A DNA stretch of 13,374 nucleotides, from positions 1-13,374 of the forward strand of contig JBBDTI010000004.1 in NCBI GenBank assembly GCA_040904565.1, written 5' to 3'. The stretch is from Rhodothermales bacterium. Its GTDB lineage: Bacteria; Bacteroidota; Rhodothermia; Rhodothermales; VXPQ01. Below the pieces are notes generated by a model. It made no database searches. It was not told where the DNA came from and saw only the letters and a list, made by a program, of their open reading frames with translations. Made by a program: the position numbers and the translations under genes. Shown one piece after another: positions 128 to 12,685 of the stretch. Positions within the stretch are counted from its first letter, which is position 1. Each line of letters starts with the position of its first letter.

Positions 128-1420
128 ATGGCGCGCACCGTTGCGGGACTGCCGGCAGGCACGCGGCTCAGCGACTACATCACGCTCGGCGTCATCGCCG
201 AGCGCATTCCTCGTCGTATGGTCGACGATATCCTCCGTGAGGAGGAGCGAGAGAGTGAGCGCATTCGTAAGCTCCCGGCGCACGTCGTCGTCTACTACGT
301 GATCGCCCTGGCGATCTACATGAATGTCTCCTACGGGGAGGTGCTGCGGTGTCTTCTCGAAGGGCTCGCGTGGCTTGGCCGGCCGGTCAGGCAGCTTCGC
401 CAGACGACCAAGTCGGCCATTTCGCATGCCAGGACTCGCCTCGGCTACGAGCCCATGCGGCGGCTCTACCGGGAGCTGGTCGCGCCGGTGGCGACCGATC
501 GCACGCTCGGGGCGTGGTACCGTTCGCCGGTGCCGGATCGAGGTCCGCAGGCTCCGTCCTGGCGTCTTGTGAGCCTCGACGGATCGACGCTCGACGTGCC
601 GGACGAGACGGCGAACGTGGACGTCTTCGGCCGCCCAGGTACCGCACACGGCAAGAGTGCGTTTCCTCAGCTGCGATTCGTTTCGCTCGTCGAGTGCGGG
701 ACGCACGTAATCTTCGCTGCCGCTGAGGGCCCGTTCAGCTTCTCGGAGGTCCACCTGACAAGGAGCGTTCTGCCACAGTTGACGCCGGGTATGCTCTGCC
801 TCGCCGACCGCAACTTCTTCGGATACGACCTCTGGCACGAGGCCGCCTCGACGGGAGCGGATCTGCTCTGGCGCGTACGGCTCGATGCCGCGCTGCCGGT
901 TACGGAGTCGTTGCAGGACGGCTCCTTCCTCAGCACGATCTACGCCTCGGCCAAGGACCGGCGATCCGATCACGATGGCACGCCGGTGCGCGTCATCGAA
1001 TACGAGCTCGTCGACGACGTCGGCAACCGCGTCACGCCGGGGAGCAAGGACAACCATTACCGCCTCCTTACCACGATTCTCGATCCGGAAGCGGCCCCGG
1101 CCTCCGACCTGGCCCGGCTCTATCATGAGCGATGGGAGGCCGAGAACGCCTTTGACGAGTTCAAGACGCACCTGCGAGGACGAGCAACCGTGCTCCGGAG
1201 CCGAACGCCGGCCCTCGTGCGACAAGAGTTCTATGGCTTTCTGCTCGCTCACTACGTCATCCGCGGCCTGATGCACGAGGCCGCACTGGCCGCCGATATC
1301 GATCCCGATGAGGTCTCCTTCGTCCACAGCGTGCGCGTCATTCGCCGGAAGATCCAGGCCTCGGTCCGCCACCGTGGCACCGCCCCTTTTTCCCCCTCGG
1401 GCAATCGCCATGTTGCATGA
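128..1420 (+). CDS. IS4-family DDE transposase (430 aa in frame 0)
   Basis: IS4 N-terminal region (R.RKLPAHVVVYYVIALAIY...KSAISHARTRLG). Catalytic residues in LDGS and LADRNF. Exact Y-x2-R-x3-E-x6-K (YREK) signature YHERWEAENAFDEFK. RBS GGAGG at 116-120. Confidence 0.95.
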   Translation: MARTVAGLPAGTRLSDYITLGVIAERIPRRMVDDILREEERESERIRKLPAHVVVYYVIALAIYMNVSYGEVLRCLLEGLAWLGRPVRQLRQTTKSAISHARTRLGYEPMRRLYRELVAPVATDRTLGAWYRSPVPDRGPQAPSWRLVSLDGSTLDVPDETANVDVFGRPGTAHGKSAFPQLRFVSLVECGTHVIFAAAEGPFSFSEVHLTRSVLPQLTPGMLCLADRNFFGYDLWHEAASTGADLLWRVRLDAALPVTESLQDGSFLSTIYASAKDRRSDHDGTPVRVIEYELVDDVGNRVTPGSKDNHYRLLTTILDPEAAPASDLARLYHERWEAENAFDEFKTHLRGRATVLRSRTPALVRQEFYGFLLAHYVIRGLMHEAALAADIDPDEVSFVHSVRVIRRKIQASVRHRGTAPFSPSGNRHVA

Positions 1421-3072: not shown

Positions 3073-6000
3073 TCATTCCAATGTGCGGATGAACGAAATC
3101 AAATCAGCCACTTCCTGATCGGTATAGTGTTCTATGAGTCCTTCCGGCATGAACGACCGGCCGCTGATAAACCCCTGATCTCTTATCTGCTCCTGGTCTA
3201 TGAAGACCGTCGCCCCGCCCACGAAGGCTATTGTTGTACCCTGCTCACCTCTCTCCACCAAATAACCCTCAACAATCCCCCCGTCTGTCTGGACAATGCG
3301 GTACACCAAATATCCGGACTCCACGGCCGCATTCGGATCGAGGATGGCTGTAAGTAGTGCTTCGGTATCACGGTAGGCCGAGCCGTCCAGGGCAGGTGCT
3401 ATATTTTGACCCCGGTCGCCCACGGAATGGCAGGTGAGGCACGTCTGAAACAATTTTTCTCCGTTCTCTACAGCCCCTCTGATCGACTGAACGATTCGCT
3501 GAAAGCGAGCTAGTTTGCTCTCAAATATCTCCTTCTCTTGCTGCTCGCGTTTCTGCACGCCCTCCAGGATTGCCGAACTAAGCGAACCGTCGCCGGCACC
3601 GCTGAGGCGTTCTGCTGCGGCAAGATCAAAGGCATCAAGTCCAATCATGTTTTCGTCATACATGCGTATCAACAGCTTCCTCCCGTCGTCAGAAGTTGAC
3701 AGGACATCCGTCATATCCTTTATCCGGTGATCGGTCAGCCCGGGGAGCCACTGACGGACCACGTTCAGTGCTGCCGCAGCATTTCCCCTGGCCAGGCTGT
3801 GCAGAGCATTGACGCGTATGTCGAACGCTATGCTTTCGTCACGGGCAATCCGAGCAAAGAAGTCCTGAGCCGTCACCGGATTGCTCTCCAGGGCTTTGAG
3901 AGCGAGAGTAAGGGTTTGCTCGGACGTATGGCGATCCAGCAGCGAAACGATTTCCTCAGAAAACCCTTCCATACCGAATTTTCCGATCGCGTCCAGCGCC
4001 AGGTTTATATCCTGCTCTGAATCGCTTTGCAGTAATGAGTTCACCGGAACGTGCATCATAGCCGTAAAGTCCGGGGAGTGCACCTGCCCCTGATACTGCA
4101 GCGCGAAATGAGTGTATCGGGAAGCGTGGGCAGGGGTATGAAGGACCGGTTTCACTAATTCATAGATCTCTTCATGGTCCAGCATCCGGGCAATGCTGAC
4201 AAAGGTCGGCCCATCGAGTCTCGTTATACCGGCCTTCGGCCACAATGCTAGAAAGGCCTCCTCTTTTGGTCCATCCGGGAGCGCCTGCGAGGCCCACAAC
4301 AGATTTTCGGCCGGCACCCTCCCGGCAGCATCTGAATCGAGGTACGTCTCCAGCTGGTCCGGATACTGCTCGAGGGCCTTTCGGGCCAGATACCGTTCAA
4401 ACGATCTCTCATACGGTCCTCCCAGAGCATATCCATCCATCTCCGGTTTGCCGGCACGAACAAGGAGCTCCACCGTCCCCTGGGTGGCCCCTTCAATGTC
4501 TGCCAACGTACGAAGCACCTGGGAGCGAACCATCGGATTGTCATCCTCTTCCAGGCCCTGCAGCCGGCCGGCTACGTGTGCCGGTTCCAGGGTGAAGCTG
4601 GCCAGGGACCGCACGGCTTCGCGGCGAAGGTCGTCCAGATCGCTTTCTAGTAACGAGGAAATAAGACCTTCATCGTAATGATCGATGCCTTCCAGGGACC
4701 ACAGGGCATGGATGCGGGTGATTTCATCGCGGGTATCGTCGCCGGCTAACGCGACCAGATCGGGAGCCAGCGTCTTCGTTTCGGCAATGGGCCGATCGCT
4801 GATTTGATGCCACGCCGCCCGCTTTTGCCAGAGCGATGGAGCGACGAGATGATCAACTAACGCAGCCGTACGAACCGCATAAAAATTCGGGATGCTTGGC
4901 TGCTCTTGGCTCTCATGGCAAACCCGCCAAATCCGACCGTGCGCTTTGTCCCGATCCAGGTGCGTGAGGGAAACCTCGTTATGGGATATAATCTTGTTGT
5001 ACCAATCGGCAATGTAAAGGCATCCATCTGGACCGAATTCCAGATTGACCGGACGAAAGAACTCGTCTTCCGACGTCATAAAATCCGCCAGGTGCTGAGC
5101 GCTGACCGCGCCATCGGCGTTTCTGACGATCCGTACCGCGTTAATGGTACTGGTAATGGGATTGGCAAGCAGCGCTACGTCATTCCAATTCTCAGGGAAA
5201 GAAACGCCTGGCCCGTCATCCGGGAATTCCAACCCGGAAATACCTGTGCCTCCAACGCGAAACTCATGTAGCTCCGGCATCCGGGGTTGATACGGCCGCA
5301 GGCGTTCGTTGCCTATGCCCGGGAAGCCTGTGCCCGGCTCCATCGGGACCACGGAATAGCCCAGGTCGTTGGCTTCGGTCCCATACCACTGCCCGTTATG
5401 GCGCAGCTGGAAGCCCCAGATGTTGTTCAGGCCCGAGCTTACGAGCTCGATCTCTTTCCCATCTAATGAAAACCGGACGATCTTACTGTAATCAATATCC
5501 AATTGCACATCGCTGTTAGCAGCCGATACTTTACCTTTGTTCAAGGCTCCGTGACTAAAATAAATCCAGCCGCCAGGGCCTCGGATGAGTGTATGGGCCA
5601 TCGTGTGGGTATCGGTAATACCGAACCCGGTGAATAGTGGAATGCGGCCGTCGGCCCGGCCGTCGTCGTTTTCATCCTCCAGGAAAAACAGTTCCGAGCC
5701 TTGCGCGATATACGCCCCATTCTTGTAGGGCAAGATACTCTGCGGAATAGCCAGGCCACTGGCCCACTTGGTTACGTTAACGGGGCTATTTCCATACAAA
5801 TTGGAAAGGACGAGAATATCGTCTTCCCCCTCGATCTTGCCCTGGTACATATCCAAAATTCTTTTGAACTCCGGATGATTGGTTTGAGCATCAGGATCAT
5901 CCATGAGCGCAATCAGCTCATTCCACTGAATATCCGTCACCGGATCCAGCGGATACATACGGGCTGTCTGCGTCCAAAGTCGGCCGGCGTCGTCAAACGT

Positions 6001-6195
6001 TAAATCAATCGGGTTGACGATGCCATCCCTCTCGCTCGCCACCAATTCTACCTCAAAGCCATCCGGTACCGTAAATCCCGAAAGCTCCTGCTCTGGCGAA
6101 AAAATCTCGTCACGATCAGACCGCGTATCCTGAGCAAATGAGCTTAATGGGAATAGTATGCTGATTATCAGGAGGACGGGAGAGAAATGTACCAT
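3073..6195 (-). CDS. PVC-type heme-binding CxxCH protein (secreted; dehydrogenase-like beta-propeller, HEAT-like repeats, C-terminal cytochrome c), 1040 aa
   Basis: Signal peptide MVHFSPVLLIISILFPLSSFA/Q. N-terminal SPEQELSGFTVPDGFEVELVASE..NPIDLTFDDAGRLW and FRPVNLEFGPDGCLYIADWYNKII.H motifs. HEAT-like RIHALWSLEG, LRREAVRSL, VRSQVLRTL. C-terminal GEKLFQTCLTCH (CLTCH at 3427-3441), ALLTAILDPNAAVESGY and SFMPEGL (candidate distal Met). Confidence 0.9.
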   Translation of the reverse strand: MVHFSPVLLIISILFPLSSFAQDTRSDRDEIFSPEQELSGFTVPDGFEVELVASERDGIVNPIDLTFDDAGRLWTQTARMYPLDPVTDIQWNELIALMDDPDAQTNHPEFKRILDMYQGKIEGEDDILVLSNLYGNSPVNVTKWASGLAIPQSILPYKNGAYIAQGSELFFLEDENDDGRADGRIPLFTGFGITDTHTMAHTLIRGPGGWIYFSHGALNKGKVSAANSDVQLDIDYSKIVRFSLDGKEIELVSSGLNNIWGFQLRHNGQWYGTEANDLGYSVVPMEPGTGFPGIGNERLRPYQPRMPELHEFRVGGTGISGLEFPDDGPGVSFPENWNDVALLANPITSTINAVRIVRNADGAVSAQHLADFMTSEDEFFRPVNLEFGPDGCLYIADWYNKIISHNEVSLTHLDRDKAHGRIWRVCHESQEQPSIPNFYAVRTAALVDHLVAPSLWQKRAAWHQISDRPIAETKTLAPDLVALAGDDTRDEITRIHALWSLEGIDHYDEGLISSLLESDLDDLRREAVRSLASFTLEPAHVAGRLQGLEEDDNPMVRSQVLRTLADIEGATQGTVELLVRAGKPEMDGYALGGPYERSFERYLARKALEQYPDQLETYLDSDAAGRVPAENLLWASQALPDGPKEEAFLALWPKAGITRLDGPTFVSIARMLDHEEIYELVKPVLHTPAHASRYTHFALQYQGQVHSPDFTAMMHVPVNSLLQSDSEQDINLALDAIGKFGMEGFSEEIVSLLDRHTSEQTLTLALKALESNPVTAQDFFARIARDESIAFDIRVNALHSLARGNAAAALNVVRQWLPGLTDHRIKDMTDVLSTSDDGRKLLIRMYDENMIGLDAFDLAAAERLSGAGDGSLSSAILEGVQKREQQEKEIFESKLARFQRIVQSIRGAVENGEKLFQTCLTCHSVGDRGQNIAPALDGSAYRDTEALLTAILDPNAAVESGYLVYRIVQTDGGIVEGYLVERGEQGTTIAFVGGATVFIDQEQIRDQGFISGRSFMPEGLIEHYTDQEVADLISFIRTLE

Positions 6196-6325: not shown

Positions 6326-6907
6326 CTAATTGCGTCGTTGGTGATCGCCTTGGATCGCCTCGTGCACGTCGCCGTAGAGCTTGCCGCCGATGAGATAACC
6401 AACGCCGAGGGCCTCGAGCTCTTTCATGAGGTTCTGGTCGAAGAAGCCGGCGTCCATGCGGTCAAGGATCGGCACCTCGCGGTAGCGGGTGCGAATAAGG
6501 TAGACGATGCGGGCGATCATCTTGATGATGGTATCGCCGTGATTGCTGTGCTTACTGCCTCCGCGGAAGACGGCATCAATCATAAACCGGCGCCATGTAA
6601 CCTGAAGCGACTGGAAGCCCTTGACGCCCCGCTTGTAGGTCGGGTCGACGCCTTGACGCACGTCCGCCTCACTGTTGTCCTTGACCATCGTATCGACGCC
6701 GAGAACGACAACCTCGGGCTCTTCGACATCGATCCGCCAGAGGAAGAGCTGCTGCAGAATCCGACGAAAGAGCCAGATGCGCCCCCACGAGAAGCCGCCG
6801 AAGAACCGCTTCATCTGGTGCGAGGAGGCCATCGCTTCCTCCGGCGTCTCGATCGCACCGGCGTAGCCATCATCCTCTTTCAGGTGATCGAAGTAGACGA
6901 GATGCCA
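6326..6907 (-). pseudogene. IS1380-family transposase fragment, truncated at both ends
   Basis: The frame is open from 6907: WHLVYFDHLKEDDGYAGAIETPEEAMASSHQMKRFF...VVLGVDTMVKDN...GVDPTYK.GVKGFQSLQ...FRGGSKHSN...RMDAGFFD. These are IS1380-type DDE motifs, but the fragment is about 190 aa, far shorter than a full transposase. Confidence 0.78.
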
Positions 6908-7235: not shown

Positions 7236-10200
7236 TCAGTTGTCCTGGGCGCCGTTGGAAATCCACTCCTTGATATCGTCGATGTCGGTTGCCGTCAAGC
7301 CGCCGTTGGGAGGTGGCATGTTTTCGCCGCAATTCTCCCTCGCATCGCCCTGAGGGAAATTTGCACAGTCAAGACTAGAGAGATTAGCGTTCTCGATTTT
7401 GTCGATCACGTAACTCGCCGCCGGATCACTGGGCGCCACCCGCTTGCCGGAGTTAAGCTCTTCGGCATCGACATCAACGAGCGAGATGTGCGACAGACCG
7501 CTCGAAAGATCCATGTCGATGTCTGTGAAGTTGGGTGGGTCATTGTGGCAAACGGCGCATGCGTTGGTGAGGATCTCGTTCTGAACGAGCGTCAAGGTCG
7601 CCGCGGGCGAGCCCACATCCTCTTCCTCAACGGTGGGCTCTTCCACACAGTTCTCCCCGAGACCTGATAGAGCTAAGGTCGGCTCTACGACGGCGTCGAA
7701 AAACGCCGTCAGGCGGGTAGGACCGAACGGGAATATGGCCGGCTGCGTACTGTCGTAGCTGCTCCAGAACCGATTGTAGGTGGCCAGCGCGTGCGGCATC
7801 ACCCGTTGGGTGCAAACCCGGAGATCCGCTTTCTGGGCAATACCGCCGTCCGCTTCGGGTTTGAGGAACTGATTAACGTCCTGAAAGCGGATGTCCCGGA
7901 CTCCCCCGCTGCCGTTATCTTCGAGGGGCCGGGAGGCGTGACAAACCCGGCAGGCAGGACCGACGACGTTCAAATACATGTCCCGATGAGCGTCGTTCGC
8001 GTCCCAGTTGGTGACCAAGAAGTCCTCGATGGGATCCGGGTCGCTACCCGTATACATCTCGTCGATGATCTCTTCGATAACGGCACCGGGCTCGGTGTCG
8101 ACAACCAGGTCGTTGAGCTCGAAGAACTCGCGATGTTGGTTGGTTTCCTCAAAGTCTAGCGGCACCGCGCCGTCCAGCACGTAGGTGTTGACGTCAAACG
8201 GCAGCATGACTGCGCCCATCTTGACGTCGGCCGGGGTGCTAAAGGCCGGCACGCCGGTGTTGAATCCGGCGTCATAGGCACCCCCGTGACAGACCATGCA
8301 GAGCTGGGGAATCGGCCGGGCCCCTCTGTTGTCGAGGTCGGCAGTGAAGAGCGGGTTACCGGCGGCGTCGTAGACGTAGAATTTGACGACGCGCTCGTTG
8401 TCGGATATCACGATCGGCGCGTTGGGATCATTTGGGTCGGCGCCCGCATCCGGATCATAGTAATTGTACGGCGTGGCCGCTGGATCCTCGATCCGCGACC
8501 ATTCCATGGCCACCGTCGCCACCAACTCGGCCGAATTCTGCGTGACGGCATTTTCGAAGTCGCCTTCGTCGTCGGACTCGTAGCTCCCGTAATTCGTGAC
8601 GTAAAATGCGATGTCGTACTCGTTATCGTTCGCCAGCGTCCGTTTGCCGTGCATGTCCCGTCCAAAGCCCAGATCCACGGCGTTTGCGTACGCAGCTCGC
8701 ACTTCGTCGACCGGCCCGTAGCTTTCCTGAATCAGCGTGTTGCCGTCCGGCGCAAATCCGTTCGTCTGCTTAAACTCCGTGAACGTCTTGCGGAGACCAC
8801 GGGGGTCGATGGTGCCGTAGTAATCAATCGTGGCGTCCTCCAGGTTGTCCTTGAGCGTCTGGTCGAGCACGACGTCCCCTTCCTGCACCCTGCTCGCGGC
8901 AAGCGAATACAGGCCGTGTAGAAACGCGTCCGCTCCGGGCTCGGGTGCGTCCACCTCGAAGAGGACGACCTTGGTCTCGCACTCCGCATAGTTCGGCCCC
9001 GTCGGGTTTCCGCTCTGCGGGCCGTTCGTGTTGACGCCGAAAACACCGTAGGGGACGCCGCCATCCCCCACGGGTGCGTACGGCATGAGTGTGATGTCAG
9101 TGTCGTTCGGAAGATTGATGATCAGGTGATAGACGCCGTTCTCATCGATTTGCTCGTCTCGGACCCGAGGGGCCGATCCGCCCCCCATGGGCACCACAAC
9201 CTCTATTCGGTAAGGCGTCGGCAACCCTTCGCTCTTAAATCGCACGCAGGACTGTCCATCCTTCAGTACGTCCGCGTTGATCGTGGTGAAATGGCCCACC
9301 TGTCCCTCGTAGAATTGTCCGGATGCGTCGAGCGTCATTGTTCCGTCGGTGCGCCAGAGCCCGGCCGTCTCGTCGTAGATCATCTGGGGGATCGTGGTGG
9401 GGATGGATCCGGGAGCGGTCAGCTGCACGTCCGGCACGGGAATCCTCAGCCCGGCGTTCGCCCCGGGCTCGATGTTGTAGCTTTCGCCCCCTGCCGAAAG
9501 CTCCACGAAAACTGCGCCGAAACTGTCCATCGTACGCGGCTCGCCGGCAGCGTTCAACGCCGAGTAATCGCCCGGCATCGAATTCGGTTCAAGAAGATCC
9601 ACCGTGCCGATGGCCACGTCGACCATTGTGCCAGACGGTGGTACGTTGCCGTCGTCGTCTACGATGGAGTTAGCGGGTATGAAGACCTCACCGCCTGGCC
9701 CGCACCCGCGTTCTCGCCGCAGATTCATGACGGAGGCTGGGAAAGGTGACTCGAGACTGTCGCCGATCGCGACGACGCGGCCTCTGCCATCCTGGATCCG
9801 TACTCTCTTGCGCGTTCCAAACGCATCCCAGTCGATCCGGCTGCTCGCAGGAATCGCGCACCCGATCTGCTGATGTACCGAGTCCGCGATCGTATTGTCG
9901 ATCGTCGGATCGATGCTCGTCACGGTAACCGGGCGCATTGTCCAGCGGCCCCCGCTGATGCCGGCCCGATAAATGCGGGAGACCGGTGCAAATCCCTGCC
10001 TGCGGATATTCAGGACATAGCGTGGCACTCGAGTGACCCGCGCGCTGAAATATCCGTTGCTGTTCGTCGTCGCTGTACCATCGCCGACCGCGACCTCGGC
10101 CCCGGCGACGGGCGCTCCGAGAACGTCGAGCACCTGGCCCGAGAAACCCTCGCCGTTCGATCCTGTGGACAGCTTCAGCACCTGCCGGTCGTAGCCTCCC

Positions 10201-11339
10201 TTTCGATCCGTGACGTGCACATAGACGCTGTACAGCCCGGGTGTGTTAGGCAGCGTCCACTGCACAGTCGATCCCGTCGTGGCACTGAGCATGCCCGACC
10301 CCCGGTCGATGCGCCAGGTGTATTCCAATGGGTCGCCATCCGGATCGCCCGACCGCACGACGAGATCGACGACGTCACCCGGATTAGGACGGATCATTTC
10401 AACCCCGCCGACGGAGCTGATCACATCCTCGATTTTCGGCGAAGAATTTCGCATCGTAATATTCACCCGGTGGGTCACACCGGTGATCAGCTTCTCACCG
10501 CGAATAGACCTTGCGGCGCGCCCCTGGTCGATGGACGCCACGACCTGCAGGTGGCCGGCTGAATCCGCCGGGACGCTGGGGATGACGTATCGGCCGAAAT
10601 TGTTTAAGGCTGTCTCGTAGAGAACGGTGTCGCCGAGATCCAGTACTTGCACCTTGACGAAATTGTTGACGCTAACGACCGGCTCGAGGAAGCGAATCGA
10701 ACTGCCGTCGCGCAGGGATACGGTTCCGTAAATGGAGACGCGTGTGCCCTGATCGGTAATCGCCCCGATGCGAACGTCGCCGATATTAACGGGGCGTGAA
10801 TCCACGGTGATGGGATCCGGCAGGCACCCGGAATTGAAGCCGTCTCTTTCCCAGCAAACAAGGTAGTCGCCCGCATCCTGCGGCGGAAAGTCGAAACGCC
10901 CGCTGAGATCGGTCAGCACGGAATCGACGTCGGCGCCGGTAGACGGATTCCGCAGAAATACAGACACGCCCGGAAGATAGATCTCGTGCGCCACTGAATC
11001 TCGCGGCTCGTGCGCGAGATCGGGTCGAAGCTGCGTTAGCACGAAGCCGCGCACGTATTTCTTGTCGCTCAACTGCCGGGTCGGTGCATCCGGCGGAGCC
11101 TGACACCCAAGTTGCGCGCCCACACTGAGGACTAGAAGCACCGCGGCGAAATTGCACCAACTCCTGCCGTTGCGATGCTGGTTCCGCGTGCTTTCTCGGG
11201 CCCGATTGGGTTGTCTGGGGTCTGAAGGTCTGTTTGACTCTGCGCTGTAATCGTCGCCAGCGCGGTCGGCTGAAGTGCGGAGTTGATTCATTATGGTGAT
11301 CCGTTCTTTGGCCGCAGTGAAGCCGCTATCCCGGACCAA
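7236..11339 (-). CDS. Large multidomain putative surface lipoprotein and triheme c-type cytochrome (1367 aa from TTG; more likely ATG at 11291, 1351 aa)
   Basis: Hydrophobic segment and lipobox FAAVLLVLSVGAQLGC (Cys codon 11105-11103). Carboxypeptidase-regulatory/prealbumin-like repeats (LPGVSVFL...TDLSGRFDF...AGDYLV; FSGQVLDVLGAPVAGAEV...TTNSNGYF). Ig/PKD-like domain (DPDGDPLEYTW...PGLYSVYVHVTD). ZU5/FAM171-like region (IPANSI...MPGD...MDSFG...YDETAGLW...HFT). Heme motifs CMVCH (8286-8300), CRVCH (7938-7952), CAVCH (7545-7559). C-terminal RVAPSDPAASYVIDKI...MPP...LTATDIDDIKEWISNGA cytochrome c domain. Confidence 0.88.
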   Translation of the reverse strand: MVRDSGFTAAKERITIMNQLRTSADRAGDDYSAESNRPSDPRQPNRARESTRNQHRNGRSWCNFAAVLLVLSVGAQLGCQAPPDAPTRQLSDKKYVRGFVLTQLRPDLAHEPRDSVAHEIYLPGVSVFLRNPSTGADVDSVLTDLSGRFDFPPQDAGDYLVCWERDGFNSGCLPDPITVDSRPVNIGDVRIGAITDQGTRVSIYGTVSLRDGSSIRFLEPVVSVNNFVKVQVLDLGDTVLYETALNNFGRYVIPSVPADSAGHLQVVASIDQGRAARSIRGEKLITGVTHRVNITMRNSSPKIEDVISSVGGVEMIRPNPGDVVDLVVRSGDPDGDPLEYTWRIDRGSGMLSATTGSTVQWTLPNTPGLYSVYVHVTDRKGGYDRQVLKLSTGSNGEGFSGQVLDVLGAPVAGAEVAVGDGTATTNSNGYFSARVTRVPRYVLNIRRQGFAPVSRIYRAGISGGRWTMRPVTVTSIDPTIDNTIADSVHQQIGCAIPASSRIDWDAFGTRKRVRIQDGRGRVVAIGDSLESPFPASVMNLRRERGCGPGGEVFIPANSIVDDDGNVPPSGTMVDVAIGTVDLLEPNSMPGDYSALNAAGEPRTMDSFGAVFVELSAGGESYNIEPGANAGLRIPVPDVQLTAPGSIPTTIPQMIYDETAGLWRTDGTMTLDASGQFYEGQVGHFTTINADVLKDGQSCVRFKSEGLPTPYRIEVVVPMGGGSAPRVRDEQIDENGVYHLIINLPNDTDITLMPYAPVGDGGVPYGVFGVNTNGPQSGNPTGPNYAECETKVVLFEVDAPEPGADAFLHGLYSLAASRVQEGDVVLDQTLKDNLEDATIDYYGTIDPRGLRKTFTEFKQTNGFAPDGNTLIQESYGPVDEVRAAYANAVDLGFGRDMHGKRTLANDNEYDIAFYVTNYGSYESDDEGDFENAVTQNSAELVATVAMEWSRIEDPAATPYNYYDPDAGADPNDPNAPIVISDNERVVKFYVYDAAGNPLFTADLDNRGARPIPQLCMVCHGGAYDAGFNTGVPAFSTPADVKMGAVMLPFDVNTYVLDGAVPLDFEETNQHREFFELNDLVVDTEPGAVIEEIIDEMYTGSDPDPIEDFLVTNWDANDAHRDMYLNVVGPACRVCHASRPLEDNGSGGVRDIRFQDVNQFLKPEADGGIAQKADLRVCTQRVMPHALATYNRFWSSYDSTQPAIFPFGPTRLTAFFDAVVEPTLALSGLGENCVEEPTVEEEDVGSPAATLTLVQNEILTNACAVCHNDPPNFTDIDMDLSSGLSHISLVDVDAEELNSGKRVAPSDPAASYVIDKIENANLSSLDCANFPQGDARENCGENMPPPNGGLTATDIDDIKEWISNGAQDN

Positions 11340-11741
11340 CCGTCGTCAAGCTTTCCTAATTCAACTGATAGAAGTGACCACACTCAGCTTGACTCTGCTT
11401 GGGATAGGTACCCCACGCAAGAGATGAAAAAAGGTCCTGCAAGACGGACGCAATACGAGCAGGTATCGTTCGATTCAAAAAGCGCGTGTAACGTCCCAGG
11501 CCGTGTGCAAACATTGAGAAGCTACCGCCCATCTGAGCAGGTTTTCAAGCGCCAATCCAGAACCACACTTTAGAAAGGCTACACCTGGGAAATGGATAAT
11601 ACGTCCCTCCGAGCTGACAAGCAAACAGCTCATCGACCTGGTCGTAGAGATCATGCCACTTGGCATGCAGACAATCATTCAGAAGCACCGGAAAGGCGAC
11701 CAGGCCGATTACCTGAGTCGTAGCGAGCCCTTCCGCCAAAC

Positions 11742-12221
11742 TCACCCCACCCGCCGATCCAGCGTCCGGTACTGAATCGCCTCGGAGATGTGCTCGGGGC
11801 GCAGCTCGGCCGAGCCCGCCAAGTCTGCCACCGTGCGGGCCACCTTCAGAATGCGCCCGTATCCCCGCGCGCTGAGCCCCAGCCGCTGGATCGCCATCTT
11901 CATGAGCGCGCGGCAGGCCGAGTCCATCGTGCAATAACGGCGTACGAGCCGCATCGACATCTGCGCGTTGCAGTGGACGTAGGCCTGGCCGCTGAAGCGT
12001 GCCCGCTGCAGCTCCCGTGCCGCCAGCACGCGGCGGAGCACGTCGGCCGACGACTCCGCCTCGGCGCGAGAGGACAGCTCGTCGAACGGGACGGGCGAGA
12101 CGTCCAGGTGCAGATCGATCCGGTCCATCAACGGCCCGGAAATACGCCTTCGGTAGCGCTGGACGTCCCCCGACGAGCACACGCATTCCTGGTGGAGCGA
12201 GCCCAGCATGCCGCACTTGCA
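11742..12221 (-). pseudogene. comM: 3' fragment (159 codons) of a comM/yifB Mg-chelatase-like AAA+ ATPase gene
   Basis: CKCGMLG...CVCS...YRRRISGPLMDRIDL...ESSA..RRVLAARELQRARF...NAQM...LGLSARGY.RILKVARTVADL...HISEAIQYR is the canonical ComM/YifB C-terminus. Similarity stops where AMNP should precede CxCG. Confidence 0.9.
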
Positions 12222-12245
12222 CCGTTGCGTCGACAAGTTGCCACC
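12210..12245. mobile_element. Probable integration junction (att hybrid site) of an element inserted in comM, extending rightwards
   Basis: ComM similarity ends abruptly at about 12222 and GC content visibly drops to the right. comM is an established hotspot for integrative elements. No integrase is present in the window. Confidence 0.6.
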
Positions 12246-12313
12246 TGCATCTCGAGGCGGAAATCCCTCCTCCTTCAGGGTATCCGACGGAATTGCGGAC
12301 CATCGGAGCCCAT

Positions 12314-12685
12314 ATGCGCAAGAAACGAATCGATTTGGGGCTTCGTCAGAGAGACGTTGCGACGCTGATCGGCGTGACCGAATCGACGATCTGGAACTGG
12401 GAGTGTGGCTGTGTAACGAATCCAGAGATTCATTACGGGCCCGCAATCATCGCCTTTCTCGGCTACGTGCCTATGAAAGATCCGACAGCGTTACGGGAGC
12501 AACTGCGCGCGTATCGCATGTTACGCGGAATGTCACAGAGGCAAGCCGCATGCGACATAGGTGTAGACCCGTCGACGTGGGAAAAGTGGGAGAACGAGAC
12601 TGCTACTCCACGGCTCAAACGACTAAGGGCCTGCATCTCGAGATTCGTAGTGCCGGTTGTCGAGAAACTCGAGTATCGTGGATAA
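12314..12685 (+). CDS. Tandem helix-turn-helix XRE/Cro-C1-like regulator (123 aa from ATG 12314; true start uncertain, frame open back through 12221)
   Basis: Two HTH_3-like units: MRKKRIDLGLRQRDVATLIGVTESTIWNWE and LRAYRMLRGMSQRQAACDIGVDPSTWEKWE. The protein-like GYPTELRTIGAH segment lies upstream of the ATG. Confidence 0.85.
   Translation: MRKKRIDLGLRQRDVATLIGVTESTIWNWECGCVTNPEIHYGPAIIAFLGYVPMKDPTALREQLRAYRMLRGMSQRQAACDIGVDPSTWEKWENETATPRLKRLRACISRFVVPVVEKLEYRG

Follow-up and report, generated by a model that had tools for sequence, protein, structure and literature searches.

A large stalked three-haem protein with a predicted self-cleavage site in a Rhodothermales bacterium

Gene, export signal and stalk

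The window (the whole 13,374-nucleotide stretch of DNA that was analysed) carries on its minus strand an open reading frame at 7236..11339, with 1367 codons counted from a TTG, along the full length of which homologues align. Its first ATG is codon 17 (window position 11291), and a search for further ATG, GTG or TTG codons between this ATG and the hydrophobic segment of the signal found none. The gene therefore probably occupies 7236..11291 (minus strand) and encodes 1351 aa. The public gene call on the same DNA (P0003, 1278 aa) starts at an internal TTG and loses the signal. The product is a large, modular and probably exported haemoprotein belonging to a widespread, uncharacterised family. 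Flanking the gene are an IS4 transposase, a fragment of a transposase and a Mg-chelatase-like gene that is truncated; the gene's own GC content is 0.607, versus 0.549 in the neighbouring haem protein gene.

The export signal (aa 17-79; 11103..11291, minus strand) consists of a long basic N-region, a hydrophobic stretch (FAAVLLVLSVGAQLG) and Cys79, with which the lipobox-like QLGC ends. In bacterial lipoproteins the canonical lipobox at the end of the signal peptide is L-[ASTVI]-[GAS]-C; the lipobox-like signal perceived in the earlier note is borne out, though its Gln at position -3 is non-canonical. Among 24 homologues with full N-termini (alignment A1), 13 have a Cys directly after the hydrophobic stretch, several of them in canonical lipoboxes (LSAC, LAGC, LAAC, LVSC and LSSC), and 11 have none; the closest relatives have Cys at the same position as the window protein. 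The 10 non-haem cysteines fall into nearest-neighbour pairs (162/172, 494/546, 698/787, 1176/1231 and 1325/1337). A 29-sequence alignment shows no variation at C698, C787, C1176 and C1231, and at least 90% of its sequences keep C494 and C546. The hydrophobic signal with its Cys and the pairing of the other cysteines support export, which would proceed via Sec. To judge from the sequence, the Rhodothermales bacterium protein is probably lipid anchored at Cys79, but the non-canonical lipobox and the 11 homologues lacking the Cys indicate that a lipid anchor is no trait of the family.

Pfam matches resolve the stalk (aa 90-478; 9906..11072, minus strand), previously described as beta-sandwich-like repeats, into four beta-sandwich domains: two CarboxypepD_reg/SdrD-B-like, one PKD-like (aa 321-386) and one CarboxypepD_reg (aa 398-478). 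CarboxypepD_reg (E 3.8e-17) matches three stretches, most strongly aa 400-455, and was found in 26 of 29 family members, while the matches to PKD (aa 321-386) and to an SdrD_B/NOMO-like domain (aa 122-164) are weak.

The GAIN/ZU5-like domain and its H-F-T triplet

A fold search identified aa 479-694 (9258..9905, minus strand) as a GAIN_B/ZU5/FIIND-like beta-sandwich, confirming the ZU5/FAM171-like region suspected earlier. The Pfam models for ZU5 (PF00791), GPS (PF01825) and P460 had no match in the window protein at E ≤ 1, and 25 listed families, of the 39 matched by 29 members, do not include them. Microbial GAIN-like domains are reported to show no strong resemblance in sequence to their eukaryotic counterparts.

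The final two strands of the sandwich are joined by a turn that holds H683-F684-T685 (9285..9293, minus strand), a predicted cis-autoproteolysis site. In the predicted structure the triplet comprises model residues 214-216, flanked by strands at 207-212 and 217-224, and the NLRP1 ZU5 fragment, which ends at F1212, aligned to model residues 1..215 in the fold search. The domain thus has the H-x-S/T triplet in the turn preceding the last beta-strand that marks the GAIN/MAIN/ZU5 superfamily. Of the 239 domains of relatives that were compared, 223 keep H[FL][ST] and 238 keep x[FL][ST]. Some ZU5 domains, such as those of ankyrin and UNC5b, are non-cleaving. Here, however, the cleavage residues rank with the most strongly conserved in the domain, the nucleophile being kept in all but one of the 239, and conservation of the triplet for structural reasons alone is therefore hard to defend. 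Fold and motif together suggest that the protein probably cleaves itself between F684 and T685. Of the earlier description of anchor, stalk and haem head "in one polypeptide", the domain order within one open reading frame stands, but a single mature chain is improbable given the conserved triplet in the ZU5-like domain.

Self-cleaving domains of this kind have precedents in bacteria. A 2012 study (PMC3482391) predicted ZU5 autopeptidases in bacterial surface proteins, and bacterial GAIN-like "MAIN" domains have been shown to cut between F and S of HFS, with the fragments remaining associated (Brogan & Rudner, bioRxiv 10.64898/2026.05.12.724683).

The three-haem head and its relatives

The predicted C-terminal fragment has as its first domain an Ig/FN3/transthyretin-like beta-sandwich (aa 695-800; 8940..9257) with conserved Cys698 and Cys787; like all features of the head, it is encoded on the minus strand. 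The haem-1 domain (aa 827-1085; 8085..8861) has two helices and a five-stranded sheet, then C1014-M-V-C-H1018 (8286..8300) inside an invariant RP[IV]PQLC..CH. The haem-2 domain (aa 1086-1244; 7608..8084), for which the fold search gave no specific match, is helical and holds CRVCH (aa 1130; 7938-7952), the invariant C1176, VMPH (aa 1180-1183; 7791-7802) and C1231. The haem-3 domain (aa 1245-1367; 7239..7607) is a class-I/PSCyt1-like cytochrome c with CAVCH (aa 1261; 7545-7559), a distal Met in the invariant Met1341-Pro1342 (7314-7319) and a class-I fold; in the fold search it resembles FoxE and PccH, both electron carriers.

The positions given in the earlier note for the three CxxCH motifs and for the candidate Met-ligand motifs RVMPH (aa 1179-1183) and ENMPP (aa 1339-1343) are correct. 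Shuffling the protein 20,000 times gave on average 0.003 CxxCH per sequence, and three or more never occurred. All three CxxCH, M1181-P1182-H1183 and M1341-P1342 are invariant in the 29 aligned homologues, and in a 48-sequence alignment the same residues are invariant except H1183 (at least 90%). Homologues thus keep the haem motifs and share the architecture, an export signal is present, and no match to a characterised family emerged, so that none of the three refutations named in the earlier note applies. Among 134 three-domain relatives, 15 have only two C..CH; the third site is Cx4CH in the 4 checked in alignment A1. The genome carries two Cytochrom_C_asm genes, and the three haems c would be attached outside the cytoplasm.

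The head consists of three different haem domains, two of them without a solved or named relative, and its conserved core is the first rather than the cytochrome-c-like last. The haem-1 domain is the most conserved section of the protein and has many invariant columns, polar residues included. The invariant M896, M945, M1181 and H1183 are possible sixth ligands; if they make haems 1 and 2 six-coordinate, that would speak for a role in electron transfer alone.

The P460/c'-beta fold is a five-stranded antiparallel sheet with a C-terminal CxxCH. The sheet of the haem-1 domain looks similar, and on the predicted structure this conserved core may be distantly related to that fold, which a 2025 review calls unique to the two families (PMC11928373). 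Pfam PF16694 had no match in the genome, in the window protein or among the families listed for 29 members, and hhalign of the domain against P460 gave a non-significant probability of 8%. The domain is therefore not classed as a P460/c'-beta member, and the likeness of fold serves as a lead. P460 and c'-beta proteins are small homodimers of ∼150 aa, whereas the haem-1 domain has ∼260 aa and sits within a three-haem protein of 1350 aa. Five-coordinate haem is a mark of the superfamily, and a Lys-porphyrin cross-link is a mark of P460 alone. Lys986 is invariant in both the 29- and the 48-sequence alignments, and in the non-significant hhalign alignment (8%) it falls on the K/F column of P460. 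That Lys986 might be a porphyrin cross-link residue is a guess.

Relatives at E ≤ 1e-3 numbered 136 among 8000 scored candidates, most of them 1250-1350 aa long, and an exhaustive phmmer search with aa 470-1367 found 3189 representatives at E ≤ 1e-3 and 213 at E ≤ 1e-30. Relatives with the same architecture (∼1250-1350 aa) occur in many diderm phyla. The 80 genomic loci likewise span many phyla, with Corallococcus, Tistlia and Parvibium among the cultured carriers; the copy of Bradyrhizobium sp. TZ2 is split over two ORFs. A sample of 300 other genomes of the same phylum yielded no full-length relative. In agreement with the earlier note, literature searches brought up no characterised protein with this architecture, and the sequence searches gave no named match.

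The loci scanned have no conserved neighbour gene pointing to a substrate or partner, and no conserved conduit, porin or electron-conduit genes nearby. A scan of 36 neighbours showed adjacent tyrosinase-domain genes in 4, and at one locus (L044) a paralogue beside the family member combines CarboxypepD_reg and a ZU5-like module (with HLS) with a tyrosinase head. The head also occurs alone, with a hydrophobic N-terminus of its own (P0269, 652 aa, on a 73.6-kb contig). Most carriers belong to lineages that we take to be aerobic soil heterotrophs or soil and sediment bacteria, and this, with the lack of conserved electron-conduit genes nearby, does not favour extracellular electron transfer; peroxide or metal chemistry and redox sensing, the other functions suggested in the earlier note, are further candidates.

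Proposed mechanism, alternatives and known systems

The self-cleavage triplet, the large and widespread family, and the three different haem domains with the first as core go beyond the earlier note. Together with the anatomy they lead us to a reading in which we have about even confidence: a Sec-exported, probably lipid-tethered, self-cutting stalked three-haem protein with haem 1 as working site and haems 2 and 3 as relays. An N-O acyl shift, in which His683 would be the base and Thr685 the nucleophile, would cut the chain between F684 and T685, yielding one fragment with anchor and stalk and another that runs from the last strand of the sandwich through the Ig domain into the haem head. Both would be held together non-covalently via the last strand and be separable under force or unfolding, so that the head would be displayed on a breakable tether. 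The haem-1 domain would bind a small substrate or ligand, as its invariant polar residues and its cytochrome c'-beta/P460-like sheet suggest, while haem 2, with VMPH as its ligand region, and haem 3, of class I with His/Met ligands, would pass electrons on to a partner or receive them from one.

The same anatomy would suit the picture drawn in the earlier note, an uncleaved, lipid-anchored single chain in which stalk and ZU5-like domain are a spacer or adhesin, three six-coordinate haems exchange electrons with an external or periplasmic partner and H-F-T is structural only. Invariant candidates for sixth ligands (M896, M945, M1181, H1183 and M1341), the likeness of haem 3 to FoxE and PccH, and the existence of non-cleaving ZU5 domains fit such a chain, and a characterised extracellular tri-haem lipoprotein is known in PgcA of Geobacter (PMC5732950). 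The conservation of the three cleavage residues, above all the nucleophile, nevertheless speaks against it, as do invariant haem-1 columns, polar ones included, in excess of what a simple wire would need, and the lack of conserved conduit or porin genes nearby; we consider it possible but rather unlikely. We are more doubtful still of a soluble periplasmic or secreted redox enzyme, with its signal removed, no lipid anchor, sandwiches that bind a polymer (cell wall, polysaccharide or humic matter) and any cleavage serving maturation. The Gln at -3, the 11 homologues without Cys and the stand-alone head are compatible with it, and the tyrosinase-headed paralogue and adjacent tyrosinase-domain genes point to oxidative chemistry on external substrates; yet 13 of the 24 homologues have the Cys, several in canonical lipoboxes, and the closest relatives retain it at the position seen in the window protein.

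A very small chance is left to a recently transferred passenger gene, decaying or unexpressed here, the anatomy of which would inform on the family rather than on this organism. Its transposase and truncated-gene flanks, its higher GC content and the lack of a full-length relative in the 300 genomes sampled would agree with transfer, but the frame is open over 1367 codons, every invariant family residue is present and the signal is intact. The preferred reading, a self-cutting and probably tethered protein, can be carried further to a shed redox enzyme, which we regard as improbable: the GAIN/ZU5-type self-cut would make a lipid tether breakable by force or signal, releasing a three-haem oxidoreductase that acts on small N/O species or phenolic matter, with its catalytic haem in an unrecognised P460/c'-beta branch, possibly with a Lys986-porphyrin cross-link, and with a tether module shared with copper (tyrosinase) heads.

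The closest parallel is with MAIN proteins such as Bacillus subtilis YfkN, which, as described by Brogan & Rudner (bioRxiv 10.64898/2026.05.12.724683), share the GAIN_B-like sandwich and, in a beta-turn close to the end of that domain, the H-x-S/T triplet (HFS in YfkN), and are also large, exported and multidomain, with Ig-like adhesion domains, enzymatic cargo and a proposed role as releasable tether. Their order is signal, cargo, MAIN domain and C-terminal wall anchor, whereas here signal and Cys are followed by stalk, GAIN-like domain and cargo, a reversal that counts against the self-cutting reading. Their anchors are sortase or SLH rather than a probable lipobox, and they are described mainly from Bacillota rather than diderm phyla; neither "cytochrome" nor "heme" appears anywhere in the main text of that preprint, whereas the cargo here is a haem protein. 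Because it ends in a cytochrome domain without a C-terminal anchor, the window protein is not a MAIN protein of the described architecture, though by analogy it may work like one. Bacterial GAIN/ZU5-type self-cleaving domains have so far been linked to Gram-positive wall-anchored hydrolases and toxins. If confirmed, the present case would widen their range to include diderm phyla, an inverted topology in which the anchor comes first, and redox cargo (haem, and tyrosinase in the paralogue); it would add a widespread new tri-haem head, with two of its three domains lacking a solved or named relative, and a redox enzyme that the cell displays on a tether able to break.

Other likenesses are more partial. 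The autoproteolytic ZU5/FIIND domains of PIDD, NLRP1 and CARD8 have a death-fold domain as effector, whereas the window protein is extracytoplasmic and bacterial, lacks a Pfam ZU5 match and has a cytochrome instead. Kinship with the C-terminal haem domain of hydrazine synthase alpha (5c2v), FoxE (5mab) and PccH (4rlr) is limited to the last 120 aa. PgcA of Geobacter sulfurreducens, a tri-haem lipoprotein outside the cell with a shorter released form without the lipid domain, is a functional analogy (PMC5732950; see also PMC10570954). As described (PMC5732950), it is set apart by three mono-haem domains that resemble one another and are linked through Pro-Thr repeats, with no Ig-like stalk and no ZU5/GAIN domain, and its cutting is not attributed there to self-cleavage; no Pro-Thr repeat was seen in the window protein translation. 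The FAM171A1/A2 ectodomain shares the unit of a carboxypeptidase-regulatory-like domain directly before a ZU5-like sandwich, but FAM171, a type-I membrane protein of animals, has its anchor at the C-terminus and forms trimers, and the available part of the source mentions no self-cleavage (bioRxiv 10.1101/2025.09.18.675241). The Pfam FAM171 model (PF10577) had no match in the window protein; in a relative (P0215), the ZU5-like part gave a sub-threshold match to the same model, FAM171A1-2-B_N (E 6.5e-6; 26 bits versus a cut-off of 31.2).

The gene, its surroundings and its probably exported stalk

The window, one entire contig of 13,374 bases in an assembly of 4.0 Mb and 95 contigs, carries on its minus strand an ORF (7236..11339) of 1,367 codons counted from a TTG; the gene is single copy in the assembly. 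Because codon 17 (window position 11291) is the first ATG and no other start codon precedes the hydrophobic segment, the gene is probably 7236..11291, encoding 1,351 aa. Residues are numbered here from the TTG, as in the earlier note. The public gene call on the same DNA (P0003; 1,278 aa) begins at an internal TTG, codon 90, and has lost the signal peptide and Cys79 encoded at the 5' end of the gene (window 11073-11339), and automatic annotation would therefore miss the export. Relatives align through the dropped region. The possibility that gene calling in high-GC DNA had produced the whole gene spuriously was discarded, as the many inner plus-strand ORFs are unsupported and the minus-strand frame is conserved across phyla.

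The N terminus has a long basic N-region, a hydrophobic stretch (FAAVLLVLSVGAQLG) and then Cys79, so that the lipobox-like signal described in the earlier note is present, in a Q-L-G-C box that is noncanonical at −3 with respect to the lipobox pattern. The closest relatives have Cys at the same position, some of them in canonical boxes (LSAC, LAGC, LAAC, LVSC, and LSSC). Among the 24 full N termini in a 29-sequence alignment, Cys follows the hydrophobic stretch in 13 and is absent in 11. Export by Sec followed by heme attachment would be expected, and the genome contains two cytochrome c assembly genes; Cys79 may carry a lipid anchor in the present organism.

In the stalk (aa 90 to 478), Pfam identified CarboxypepD_reg in three stretches (E value, 3.8e-17), a weak PKD match at aa 321 to 386 and weak SdrD-B/NOMO-like signals, in agreement with the beta-sandwich-like repeats described previously. 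For the whole protein, NCBIfam gave nothing significant and phmmer against PDB sequences gave a single chance-level match (E value, 0.45).

An intact IS4-family transposase (128-1420, plus strand), a Uma2 gene, a DDE_Tnp_1_4 transposase fragment covering only profile positions 97 to 255 of 435 (6326-6832, minus strand), and an N-terminally truncated Mg-chelatase (YifB/ComM-like) gene (11742-12446, minus strand) overlapping an XRE-type HTH ORF on the opposite strand (11999-12685, plus strand) share the window with the target gene; either of the two overlapping frames may be the real one. The transposase, the transposase fragment and the truncated and overlapping genes are signs of a mobile, decaying region. 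Promoter and terminator scans and a repeat search around the gene found nothing above shuffled sequence, and the repeat search found no IS-like inverted repeats framing it. Beyond the transposase fragment lies a second large exported c-type cytochrome, a PVC-type heme-binding protein of 1,040 aa (3073-6195, minus strand; TIGR02604 E value, 1.6e-46; TIGR02603 E value, 7.8e-27) with DUF7133, HEAT repeats and a C-terminal cytochrome c domain.

Horizontal acquisition of the target gene by this genome is likely, because its GC content (7236-11291) is 0.607 versus 0.549 for the adjacent heme protein gene and because 300 other sampled genomes of the same phylum contained no full-length relative and at most a weak match to the third heme domain. 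Acquisition is also suggested by the closest relatives (63 to 65% identity), which are found in metagenome-assembled genomes labeled Planctomycetota and Thermoanaerobaculia.

The three-heme head

The three CxxCH motifs reported in the earlier note (CMVCH at 1014, CRVCH at 1130, and CAVCH at 1261) and its RVMPH and ENMPP segments were all recovered at the same residues. CxxCH occurs on average 0.003 times per shuffle of the target protein, and none of 20,000 shuffles contained three. The motifs are conserved among homologues, the check proposed previously: the three CxxCH sites, together with M1181-P1182-H1183 and M1341-P1342, do not vary in the 29-sequence alignment, whose members were chosen to span 120 listed hits, and in a 48-sequence alignment the same residues are invariant except H1183, which is kept at 90% or more. 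The third heme site has the form Cx4CH in 4 of the 29 (P0020, P0024, P0045, and P0101), and 15 of 134 three-domain relatives have only two C..CH sites. Cx4CH-type sites often require a dedicated heme lyase. The Arg of the second motif, C-R-x-C-H (window 7938-7952, minus strand), is invariant in 29/29 and 48/48 sequences; an invariant Arg within the variable positions of CxxCH is unusual.

Invariant columns make up 16.6% of the heme-1 domain (aa 827 to 1085), 10.1% of heme-2, 4.9% of heme-3 (aa 1245 to 1367), 4.6% of the GAIN/ZU5-like domain (aa 479 to 694) and 0% of the stalk, and this conservation points to heme-1 as the probable core of the head. Its invariant columns include the polar residues N886, D889, R894, E946, R983, K986, D1003, R1008, and D1049. 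Because the invariant M896, M945, M1181, and H1183 could be sixth heme ligands, heme 1 may or may not be five-coordinate.

A model of the head (aa 800 to 1367; 48-row alignment) had a pLDDT of 83.8 and a pTM of 0.78. Foldseek found no PDB match at an E value of ≤1e-3, and exhaustive structural alignment split the head into three parts. Fold class could be assigned to the third heme domain; the heme-2 domain (aa ∼1086 to 1244), which is helical in the model, had no specific match in this alignment. In the ESM Atlas the clusters nearest to aa 820 to 1245 are unnamed hypothetical proteins. With hhalign, three head subprofiles had no significant match to 25 P460-family sequences that came from same-phylum genomes; the best, nonsignificant hit spanned 22 columns around the heme-2 CxxCH at 37% probability, and the heme-1 domain reached a nonsignificant 8% over 52 columns. 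A P460-like working heme is rather less likely than not.

The middle domain and its predicted cleavage

The AlphaFold2 model of aa 470 to 800 (59-row alignment) had a pLDDT of 92.3 and a pTM of 0.88. Its GAIN/ZU5 relationship is visible only with an exhaustive aligner and not with Foldseek, which returned generic tandem-sandwich matches alone (CGTase; TM of about 0.2). Against 48,161 PDB representatives, exhaustive alignment placed ZU5 domains (ankyrin, 8.6, 8.4, and 8.2; UNC5b, 6.5) and FIIND domains (NLRP1, 5.9 and 5.8; CARD8, 5.7) at the top, all over model residues 1 to 215-226. These are known self-cleaving beta-sandwiches and their noncleaving kin. One NLRP1 chain stops at its P1 residue, F1212, and covers model residues 1 to 215 in the alignment, the last of them being F684. 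In the model, the final two strands (207 to 212 and 217 to 224) are joined by a turn that holds H683-F684-T685, and residues 226 to 331 (aa 695 to 800) form an Ig/FN3/transthyretin-like sandwich.

A domain HMM gave 256 hits in 255 fetched proteins, 239 with residues at the triplet site. The triplet is H[FL][ST] in 223 of these, SFS in seven, GFS in four, RFS in two and something else in three, and its Ser/Thr is kept in 238.

Zhang et al. is one of three papers bearing on this domain. Brogan and Rudner (bioRxiv, May 2026, 10.64898/2026.05.12.724683) showed that the GAIN-like MAIN domains of bacteria cleave at HFS, between its F and its S; the cut is blocked by Ser-to-Ala substitution and the fragments remain together, so that self-cleavage of the GAIN/ZU5 type now has experimental demonstration in bacteria. 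The proteins they surveyed, mostly from Bacillota, are arranged as signal, cargo, MAIN and wall anchor, and neither "cytochrome" nor "heme" occurs in the main text. Bird et al. (bioRxiv, 10.1101/2025.09.18.675241) showed that the FAM171A1/A2 ectodomain pairs a carboxypeptidase-regulatory-like domain with a ZU5-like one, just as aa 398 to 694 of the target do. Because of this shared pair and a subthreshold match of one relative (P0215) to the Pfam FAM171 model within its ZU5-like part, the label "ZU5/FAM171-like" used previously was apt. The Pfam ZU5, GPS and FAM171 models do not match the target protein, nor does any of them appear in a list of 25 families for 29 members. A three-copy complex prediction for aa 395 to 696 scored 0.00; it was run without controls and is evidence neither way on a trimer.

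We are highly confident that this is a real family of exported triheme cytochromes. Self-cleavage at F684|T685, taken alone, we rate somewhat above even. The head fragment would then remain docked by way of the final strand of the sandwich, like the fragments of GAIN, MAIN and FIIND domains, and be releasable; heme 1 may bind a substrate or ligand, with hemes 2 and 3 serving as a relay. The full composite of Sec export, lipid anchoring, self-cleavage, a releasable head and this division among the hemes is evenly balanced between right and wrong. Its main rival, the uncleaved stalked electron carrier favored by the earlier note, is distinctly less probable; it would place the domain with the noncleaving ZU5 kin, and would have to accommodate the near-universal Ser/Thr of the triplet. 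Less probable again is a soluble enzyme in which the sandwiches bind a polymer, a reading that the relatives lacking the cysteine favor and those keeping it oppose. That the gene is a silent passenger is very improbable given the invariant heme motifs, even in a decaying region. The stretch is listed in no RNA data set and in four DNA runs from a single sediment study, of which two may be the source.

Each part is of a known kind, namely, c-type cytochrome domains, Ig-like stalks and GAIN/ZU5 self-cleaving domains. The literature searched yielded no paper on their combination and no characterized protein of this architecture, as the earlier note had supposed. The novelty lies in how they are combined: the topology puts the anchor first, the hosts are diderm, the cargo is a redox one, and the first two domains of the triheme head lack a named relative.

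Distribution, architectures and neighbors of the family

With aa 900 to 1367 as the query, a word-indexed search found 136 proteins at an E value of ≤1e-3 among 8,000 candidates scored, most of 1,250 to 1,350 aa with CarboxypepD_reg or PKD matches and named only as "carboxypeptidase-like regulatory domain-containing," "hypothetical," or "mono/diheme cytochrome c family." Exhaustive phmmer with aa 470 to 1367 against 1.84 billion representatives gave 3,189 hits at E values of ≤1e-3, 1,219 at ≤1e-10 and 213 at ≤1e-30. In GTDB species genomes, a relative is encoded at 120 of 184 pattern matches. The 80 loci retained for neighborhood analysis belong to Acidobacteriota, Planctomycetota, Verrucomicrobiota, Myxococcota, Gemmatimonadota, Chloroflexota, Deinococcales and several Proteobacteria. 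Among the carriers in culture are Corallococcus, Myxococcus, Tistlia consotensis, and Parvibium lacunae.

Modules were scored in 254 fetched proteins, a set biased by collection in which the target counts twice (P0001 and P0003). In this biased set, 134 have the GAIN/ZU5-like domain followed by all three heme domains, 75 lack the third heme domain (74 with two CxxCH motifs and one with one), and 12 have the first two heme domains without the GAIN/ZU5-like domain, these being short and many possibly fragments. Shorter proteins were also sought, and most of the 80 recovered lie on short contigs; P0269 (652 aa; contig of 73.6 kb) consists of a head preceded by a hydrophobic N terminus of its own, and the head can therefore exist alone. 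At several loci (L014, L037, L046, and L052), two ORFs that overlap or abut take the place of the single gene. The copy at L037, in the complete genome of Bradyrhizobium sp. TZ2, comprises 7584-9980 and 9938-11542 (798 and 534 aa), where the record annotates a 521-aa hypothetical protein. Such splits could arise from frameshift, pseudogene formation or assembly error.

Clustering of 999 ORFs from the 80 loci revealed no conserved neighbor; the largest nonfamily cluster occurs in 10 loci, and no cluster occupies more than three of the adjacent positions listed. Of the 53 same-strand neighbors within 300 bp, 36 were scanned with Pfam, the other 17 being nine pieces of the family gene and eight ORFs of 103 to 122 aa. 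The 36 are heterogeneous save for four tyrosinase-domain genes. One, at L044 (11699-14485, plus strand), lies directly downstream of a family member (7445-11698) and encodes a 928-aa paralogue with CarboxypepD_reg, a ZU5-like domain (HLSTINTD) and a tyrosinase (type 3 copper) domain, with no CxxCH and no heme head; the tether module is thus common to heme and copper heads. Tyrosinase-domain genes also adjoin family members at L021 (a weak match), L049, and L058.
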